From a virus (lineage: Duplodnaviria; Heunggongvirae; Uroviricota; Caudoviricetes), in the IMG/VR virus record IMGVR_UViG_2703718801_000025: a stretch of DNA of 36,841 nucleotides; one strand, 5' to 3'. This document shows, one piece after another, positions 33,412 through 34,008 of this stretch; position 1 is the first letter of the stretch, and the number at the start of each line of letters is the position of its first letter. Below the pieces are notes generated by a model that did not search any database, was not told the DNA's origin, and was given only the letters and a program-made list of their open reading frames with translations. A program made the position numbers and the translations under genes.

Positions 33412-33651
33412 ATGTCAACATCAAAGTACCCAAGTGAGATCAAAATAAATCCCAATAAAGGTGGTAAGGCTGCGATTGAGCGATTAGTCGAAGCTTATGG
33501 CTTTACGACACGACAGGCTTTAGCTGATCACTTGGAAGTATCAAAAAGCACTCTGGCGAACAGGTATTTGCGGGATACGTTTCCTGCAGACTGGATAATC
33601 CAATGTGCTCTTGAAACAGGAACCTCACTGAAATGGTTAACCACCGGGTAA
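33412..33651 (+). CDS. cI: CI-type immunity repressor, N-terminal HTH domain only; ends at an in-frame TAA
   Basis: 79-aa ORF with a helix-turn-helix (GFTTRQALADHLEVSKSTLANRY) resembling the 186 CI N-terminal domain as remembered. Confidence 0.6.
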   Translation: MSTSKYPSEIKINPNKGGKAAIERLVEAYGFTTRQALADHLEVSKSTLANRYLRDTFPADWIIQCALETGTSLKWLTTG

Positions 33652-33720
33652 GGACTTAAGCAAAGCTCGCTGACAGTAGCCACAGAAGAGCTTCCCAAGT
33701 TTCGCCTTACCGCAGGCAAA

Positions 33721-34008
33721 ATGATTGAAGATGGTTCATATGTATTCGATTCATCATTTCTTCCTGCAAATCTTTCATCACCAATTGTTATTCAGGATGG
33801 GCTTGTCACATACATTTGTGATCAAAAATTTTCTGAAGTACTTGATGGACACTGGTTAATCAACATCGACGGAACCTATTCCATTCGAAAAATCACAAAG
33901 CTTCCAAAAGGTATGATTAAAATTACAACTACAGAGAATAGCTTTGAATGTGCATTTTCTGATATTGAAGTGGTTGCTTGTATAAGAAGTACAATAGTTT
34001 CAAATTGA
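33721..34008 (+). CDS. cI: ORF in frame with, and probably the C-terminal domain of, the CI repressor
   Basis: Same frame as 33412..33651; the 69 nt between the TAA and this ATG are fully open; no convincing RBS of its own. Confidence 0.45.
   Translation: MIEDGSYVFDSSFLPANLSSPIVIQDGLVTYICDQKFSEVLDGHWLINIDGTYSIRKITKLPKGMIKITTTENSFECAFSDIEVVACIRSTIVSN

Follow-up and report, generated by a model that had tools for sequence, protein, structure and literature searches.

Loss of the CI repressor in a 186-like prophage of a cattle-associated STEC clone: an ochre codon linked to a mutated lytic promoter

A prophage of the coliphage 186 type that lacks a working CI repressor should derepress its lytic promoter pR and kill its host, and the question raised by an interrupted cI gene is how such an element can be carried stably at all. 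The stretch of DNA analysed here (36,841 nucleotides, IMG/VR record IMGVR_UViG_2703718801_000025; hereafter the window) contains an immunity repressor gene of this kind, broken by an in-frame TAA. Given the expected lethality of repressor loss, the switch region around the gene was compared with that of relatives that encode an intact CI.

The window is a complete 186/P2-like prophage situated between ybjL-rybB and rcdA. It begins with B/ogr and continues with the tail, lysis and head genes, a retron Ec67-type reverse transcriptase, replication gene A and a Dam methylase, and proceeds to the right end, where fil, cII and apl lie on the minus strand and cI, a 558-aa gene and int follow on the plus strand (Table 1). 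The B/ogr end adjoins a full-length RybB sRNA (2700-2778, plus strand; Rfam 105 bits), and from this position it follows that the prophage integrated at or next to rybB and that a complete rybB copy was kept at the junction.

Table 1. Principal features of the prophage, by position in the window
Feature	Position	Strand	Basis
Late activator B/ogr (2856-3074) with promoter region, unaltered	2856..3140	-	WP_000972391.1
Tail tape-measure pseudogene, amber TAG at codon 58 (TAG 7648-7650)	4744..7821	-	translation, LR-50 comparison, PGAP
cII-like gene, intact, annotated as phage regulatory CII family	32553..33062	-	WP_000460897.1
apl/cox-like gene, first of the lytic operon, intact	33095..33316	-	WP_000188448.1
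Lysogenic promoter, putative 186 pL equivalent, TTGAAA-17-CAACAT, facing pR	33298..33326	+	homology only
Lytic promoter, putative 186 pR equivalent, reading towards apl	33390..33418	-	consensus scan and alignment with 186
5' part of the cI repressor pseudogene, whole HTH DNA-binding domain, 79 codons	33412..33651	+	ORF list, translation, Pfam
Ochre codon TAA in cI	33649..33651	+	CAA (Gln80) in 4/4 relatives compared base by base
Untranslated rest of the cI frame: linker and C-terminal oligomerisation domain	33652..34008	+	Pfam, PDB matches
Defence gene PD-Lambda-1, 558 aa	34029..35705	+	PADLOC E=7e-120; Pfam DUF4041, T5orf172, MUG113
Integrase, final prophage gene	35789..36841	+	ORF list; PGAP phage integrase

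The cI frame opens with an ATG at 33412, is interrupted by TAA at 33649-33651, continues through 23 sense codons to a second ATG at 33721 and closes with TGA at 34006-34008. The initial annotation had placed the 79-codon ORF (33412-33651) and the 95-codon ORF (33721-34008) in one frame, and its coordinates proved exact, the read-through length being 198 codons. It had also proposed that the sequence matches the two-domain 186 CI before as well as after the stop, and this was borne out: the conceptual read-through protein aligned with residues 21-189 of 186 CI (PDB 2fjr_A, E=1e-26) across the position of the stop, was 33% identical over 172 aa to the CI of the 186 record NC_001317 and also matched the 186 CI C-terminal domain (CTD; PDB 2fkd, E=9.9e-9). 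Taken separately, the 79-aa piece aligned with residues 14-73 of 186 CI and covered positions 1-60 of the 65 in the Pfam profile PF07022 (Phage_CI_repr, E=7.5e-31), and the 95-aa piece covered positions 14-98 of the 101 in PF16452 (Phage_CI_C, E=2.6e-25). Judged by these scores, the homology of both pieces to 186 CI is not due to chance.

The TAA is placed just 3' of the HTH-coding part and aligns to the WLLTG-E junction of 186 CI; the 79-aa fragment terminates at the motif WLTTG, the counterpart of WLLTG in 186. The N-terminal HTH of a 186-type CI is therefore held by the 79-aa ORF, while the C-terminal oligomerisation domain, which is fused to it in the relatives, is absent from the same polypeptide and its sequence sits behind the in-frame TAA. 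The gene is a 186-type CI homologue severed by one ochre codon between its HTH and oligomerisation domains, and in the window it is a true pseudogene, whose remnant encodes at most a 79-aa HTH domain without the dimerisation/wheel domain. Oligomerisation of 186 CI resides in the CTD, on which dimerisation, assembly of the 14-mer wheel and the cooperative occupation of three operators all depend (PMC3675496, PMC8053113); for this reason the fragment is expected to be a poor repressor.

The likeness to 186 extends beyond the two-domain architecture of Phage_CI_repr HTH plus Phage_CI_C. The gene order int - (cargo) - cI facing apl - cII - fil is common to both, and a face-to-face pR/pL switch is found beside apl and cII by synteny and by alignment with the annotated 186 record, the convergent promoters aligning hexamer to hexamer. 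Unlike 186, the window has a defence gene between cI and int, a cI cut at codon 80 and a mutated pR -10; its CI is also 11 residues longer at the N-terminus, so that the pR -35 overlaps the cI start codon, and its pR-pL spacer is about 10 bp shorter. Because CI identity is only 33%, the window phage would be heteroimmune to 186.

The origin of the stop codon was traced in close relatives. An 801-bp query around cI recovered most of the region in 165 complete E. coli genomes, and four relatives were compared base by base: the E. coli prophages of LR-50 (99.8% identical) and L73 (97.9%), and the deposited phages Escherichia vB_EcoM-813R9 (ON470620) and Klebsiella KP12 (OM835953). All four have CAA at the codon and an intact 198-aa gene, which in LR-50 and L73 is an uninterrupted 198-codon CDS annotated as "phage repressor protein CI" (WP_000107904.1 and WP_000107902.1, respectively). 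The TAA arose from CAA (Gln80) by one C>T transition, and beyond this codon the cI of the window is identical to the intact LR-50 gene. The immunity regions of the intact alleles share 96-99.8% DNA identity and the same neighbours, and they read CAA at codon 80 and have TAGTAT as the -10 of pR, where the window has TAA and TGGTAT; 813R9 and KP12 are presumably viable, being deposited as phage genome records.

The proposal of a repressor interrupted by an ochre codon thus agrees with its relatives, which differ at this codon by the C only and form one 198-codon gene. Two kinds of contrary evidence had been named in advance, namely homologues that encode the two parts as separate genes and reads with a sense codon at 33649-33651; neither appeared, as the gene is whole and codes for 198 aa in the relatives compared base by base, and the TAA is present in six complete genomes and nine further assemblies.

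The 61-mer centred on the TAA was found exactly in 6 of the 63 complete E. coli genomes that hold the stretch and was absent from the other 57. The six carriers come from three laboratories in three countries (Germany, USA, and Japan): 2014C-3061 was obtained from human stool in the USA, 13E0725 and 13E0780 from German cattle, and OkiPb01680, OkiPb01683, and OkiPb01700 from cattle in Okinawa. The German carriers are O182:H25 and O156:H25, both of ST300 and sequenced by PacBio RSII (PMC5427212), and the Okinawa carriers are O156:H25 with stx1a and eae (PMC12613899), so that all serotyped carriers are cattle-associated STEC of O156:H25 or O182:H25. The exact 79-aa product was further found in 61 blocks of public assemblies, and the TAA was present in all nine additional public contigs that were read, each from a different sample (eight of them derived from sequencing runs, the ninth from an ENA metagenome). 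In the carriers inspected, PGAP/RefSeq already flags cI as a pseudogene with an internal stop.

Over the tested 24.3 kb (window 2700-27000) the prophage is 100% identical in all six carriers and only in these, and in both carriers whose flanks were read it lies between ybjL and rcdA, which is vertical inheritance at one chromosomal site. The TAA is accordingly inherited and fixed in one STEC clone and is no conserved feature of the gene family.

A second gene of the prophage is interrupted in the same lineage. Codon 58 of the tail tape-measure gene is TAG in the window versus AAG in LR-50, the PGAP note on the gene reads "internal stop", and the 61-mer around this amber is exact in 6 of 205 genomes, the same six that carry the TAA. 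As a control, the 61-mer at 3085-3145, which covers the promoter pB, was exact in 55 of 105 genomes, and lineage exclusivity is therefore not general to every stretch of the prophage. Together with the change in pR described below, the TAA in cI and the TAG in the tape-measure gene are inactivating changes that have no counterpart in close functional relatives.

The comparison of the switch region revealed the third change. Between the window and LR-50 there are 14 differences over 32408-36841, and just one of these, at 33394, falls in the apl-cI spacer. The pR equivalent consists of a -35 TTGACA (33418..33413), a 17-bp spacer and a -10 TGGTAT (33395..33390); the T>C change at 33394, located 18 bp upstream of cI, converted the -10 from TAGTAT to TGGTAT, whereby the A at -11 became G. 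LR-50, L73, KP12, and 813R9 all have T at this position. The TTGACA-17-TAGTAT arrangement was the sole promoter-like match of a consensus scan in the LR-50 region, while the same scan of the window gave no match at the pR-equivalent site or elsewhere.

The identification of this site as the lytic promoter, the positional equivalent of 186 pR, is a prediction from consensus and positional homology: its hexamers align within 1 nt of those annotated for pR in the 186 GenBank record, where a -35 TTTACT and a -10 TATATT are separated by 17 bp just upstream of cI. The hexamers of the putative pL equivalent likewise align onto the annotated 186 pL (-35 TTGCGA, -10 CATGAT), and this promoter and the cI start region are unaltered versus the relatives. 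The 61-mer centred on 33394 was exact in 6 of 166 genomes, again the same six carriers, and all nine extra contigs with the TAA have C at 33394.

Promoter melting is nucleated by the A at -11, which flips into sigma70, and the substitution A-11T reduces the binding of RNA polymerase to promoter fragments up to about 1000-fold (PMC3753650). Some residual activity of pR may persist owing to its perfect -35 and 17-bp spacing. It may also be that the change acts on repressor binding, as 33394 lies within the stretch where 186 has its CI operators and an operator effect would be inseparable from a promoter effect. Another substitution in this region is found at 33080 in the apl-cII spacer, where the window has C and LR-50, L73, and KP12 have T; in 186 this is the location of the FR operator and the pE spacer.

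The most probable reading, to which a probability of roughly 75% can be assigned, is that of a grounded, decaying prophage in which a weakened lytic promoter made the repressor dispensable. In such a course the pR-down change would have come first, since it is harmless in a lysogen and possibly favoured because induction is prevented, whereas a cI null mutation alone should be lethal. The change at 33394 would cripple pR and silence the early lytic operon, which comprises apl, cII, fil and the genes for replication. If the lytic cascade could not start, the repressor would no longer be needed and the Gln80 ochre codon could be fixed neutrally; the tape-measure amber, too, would carry no cost in a lysogen. 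The three mutations, their strictly shared distribution and their inheritance, and the homology to 186 CI and pR are observed directly; how severe the promoter defect is, in which order the changes arose and that phage production has ceased are what we infer here. The view that repressor loss is unexpected for a resident prophage does not hold up under this reading, for the loss is accounted for by ordinary decay once the A>G change at -11 of pR and the tape-measure amber are considered.

Several further comparisons bear on this explanation. No intermediate genotype with mutated pR and intact cI was found in complete E. coli genomes or JGI metagenomes. No changes were found in the Apl, CII, and PD-Lambda-1 proteins, whose accessions are identical to those of the intact-CI LR-50 prophage; the apl/cox-like protein WP_000188448.1 is identical in mutant and intact-CI prophages, and the cII-like protein WP_000460897.1 is identical between 2014C-3061 and LR-50.

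One observation speaks against grounding by pR, namely that pB, which according to the 186 annotation is repressed by CI, is unmutated in the lineage. Its -10 is TATCAT (3117..3112), as in the pB of 186, and no compensating mutation was found in either pB or B: the pB 61-mer is common, as the control showed, and the B protein WP_000972391.1 is identical to that of relatives, being shared by LR-50 and the strain NT1F34. Late expression of 186 needs replication only for raising the dosage of B. Derepressed B may be tolerated in the window prophage either because the 79-aa fragment still binds or because an unreplicated single copy of B is too weak.

This possible residual binding leads to the alternative that the 79-aa HTH fragment is a working minimal repressor, which silences the prophage and perhaps confers immunity, the change at 33394 being incidental or lowering the repression that is needed. 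The fragment does hold the whole HTH domain by the Pfam profile, the pL and cI start region is unchanged, and the viability of the cell despite an unmutated pB would be explained if the fragment still bound. On the other hand, in 186 dimerisation, wheel formation and cooperative operator binding all need the CTD (PMC3675496, PMC8053113), and the complete linkage of the TAA with the -11 promoter mutation is what would be expected if repression were insufficient or unnecessary. A search for a conserved NTD-only family in a set of 5.8 billion proteins found none, the short homologues being heterogeneous fragments, frameshifted or cut at contig ends. This alternative is regarded as unlikely, at odds of about one to seven against it.

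A related possibility concerns the cargo downstream of cI. The defence gene PD-Lambda-1 (DUF4041/SNIPE plus T5orf172/MUG113), whose product has a hydrophobic segment at the N-terminus, begins 21 bp past the natural cI stop, and no promoter was found between the two genes by consensus scan; it probably belongs to one pL operon with cI and int. Owing to the stop in cI, 357 nt ahead of PD-Lambda-1 go untranslated, and Rho polarity might reduce expression of the defence gene. Instead of passive decay, the switch could have been selected in a locked state, in which the pL operon with PD-Lambda-1/SNIPE and int is expressed constitutively without full-length CI. Loss of pR would then do away with induction as a risk and would also free pL from the transcriptional interference by pR that occurs in 186, and the 79-aa HTH fragment might damp pB or give partial immunity. 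Were this so, the locus would be a natural instance of a phage switch turned into a permanent platform for expressing a defence gene, but such selection is considered a long shot, somewhat less probable even than a working fragment.

Two ways in which both CI domains could still be made were considered, and both are very improbable. The first is read-through of the TAA, as well as of the tape-measure TAG, by a host ochre suppressor tRNA or by programmed recoding; an ochre suppressor would decode UAA as well as UAG, and each of these stops interrupts one essential gene of the prophage. The search for suppressors was confined to three types, and ochre-suppressor forms of tRNA-Lys, tRNA-Gln, and tRNA-Tyr were absent from all 5426 complete E. 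coli genomes (5426/5426), the carriers included; moreover the stops are not conserved, the relatives read having CAA or AAG instead, and a TAA with G as its next base terminates translation efficiently in E. coli. Read-through is thereby largely refuted already.

The second, given an equally small chance, is a split repressor, in which re-initiation at ATG 33721 yields the C-terminal domain as a polypeptide separate from the HTH and the two then reassemble. This ATG opens the 95-codon ORF over most of Phage_CI_C and has a weak AGG 7-9 nt upstream, but a two-gene relative was absent among those inspected, the gene is a single 198-codon ORF in the four relatives compared base by base (4/4), and the exact TAA-bearing 61-mer is missing from 57 of the 63 genomes. 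In addition, a product started at ATG 33721 would lack the part encoded by the 23 linker codons as well as the domain's first strand, and the separated domains would have to associate. A sequencing or assembly error, for which only the general occurrence of single-base errors could be adduced, was rejected as next to impossible, the same base being found in six closed genomes from three groups and in nine independent assemblies.

As a grounded prophage, the window resembles other defective enterobacterial prophages in having point-mutated regulatory and structural genes and vertical inheritance at a fixed site, and also in retaining its cargo: PD-Lambda-1, the retron Ec67-type reverse transcriptase and an acyltransferase. 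In contrast to advanced defective prophages it is at an early stage: the damage amounts to three point mutations, and large deletions are absent. Prophages at the beginning of decay with their defence cargo still in place are well known, and the significance of the locus beyond annotation is small: in this cattle STEC clone the prophage is best regarded as defective, i.e. non-inducible and tail-less, and cI as a pseudogene, as is done in RefSeq. The sole new element is the linked pR -10 mutation (-11 A>G), which would explain why loss of the repressor is tolerated and how a repressor-null 186-like prophage is stably carried. The prophage may in this respect serve as a natural case of the first steps of grounding, in which first a promoter, then a repressor and then a structural gene would have been hit, by point mutations throughout, while the defence cargo stayed intact.

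A more eroded copy of the element is found in NT1F34 (NZ_CP075487.1, 3010386-3014363), where a deletion has fused the D gene to cII, so that all between D and cII is lost and apl, an intact cI and PD-Lambda-1 are retained; an IS1 is present between cI and PD-Lambda-1 in this remnant.

The remaining cargo of the window shows features of its own. The slot beside the portal gene is occupied by the retron Ec67-family reverse transcriptase/endonuclease (25082-26584, minus strand; PGAP), in place of which LR-50 has a P-loop NTPase, and Rfam at the gathering threshold gave no match at this retron locus. The acyltransferase-family gene (10394-11515, plus strand) lies between the genes for the tail sheath and for tail-fibre assembly, in opposite orientation to them, and may be a moron for O-antigen modification, in a clone known for switching between the O156 and O182 antigens. 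Finally, the DUF2732 gene (about 31835-31972, minus strand) has an in-frame 96-bp deletion with its junction at 31863-31873, flanked by the 11-bp direct repeats ATTGCTTCAGC, which shortens the protein from 77 to 45 aa. This deletion is absent from 13E0725 and 2014C-3061 and present in the public run SRR13900864, and as it varies among carriers it is a strain-level variant within the clone.
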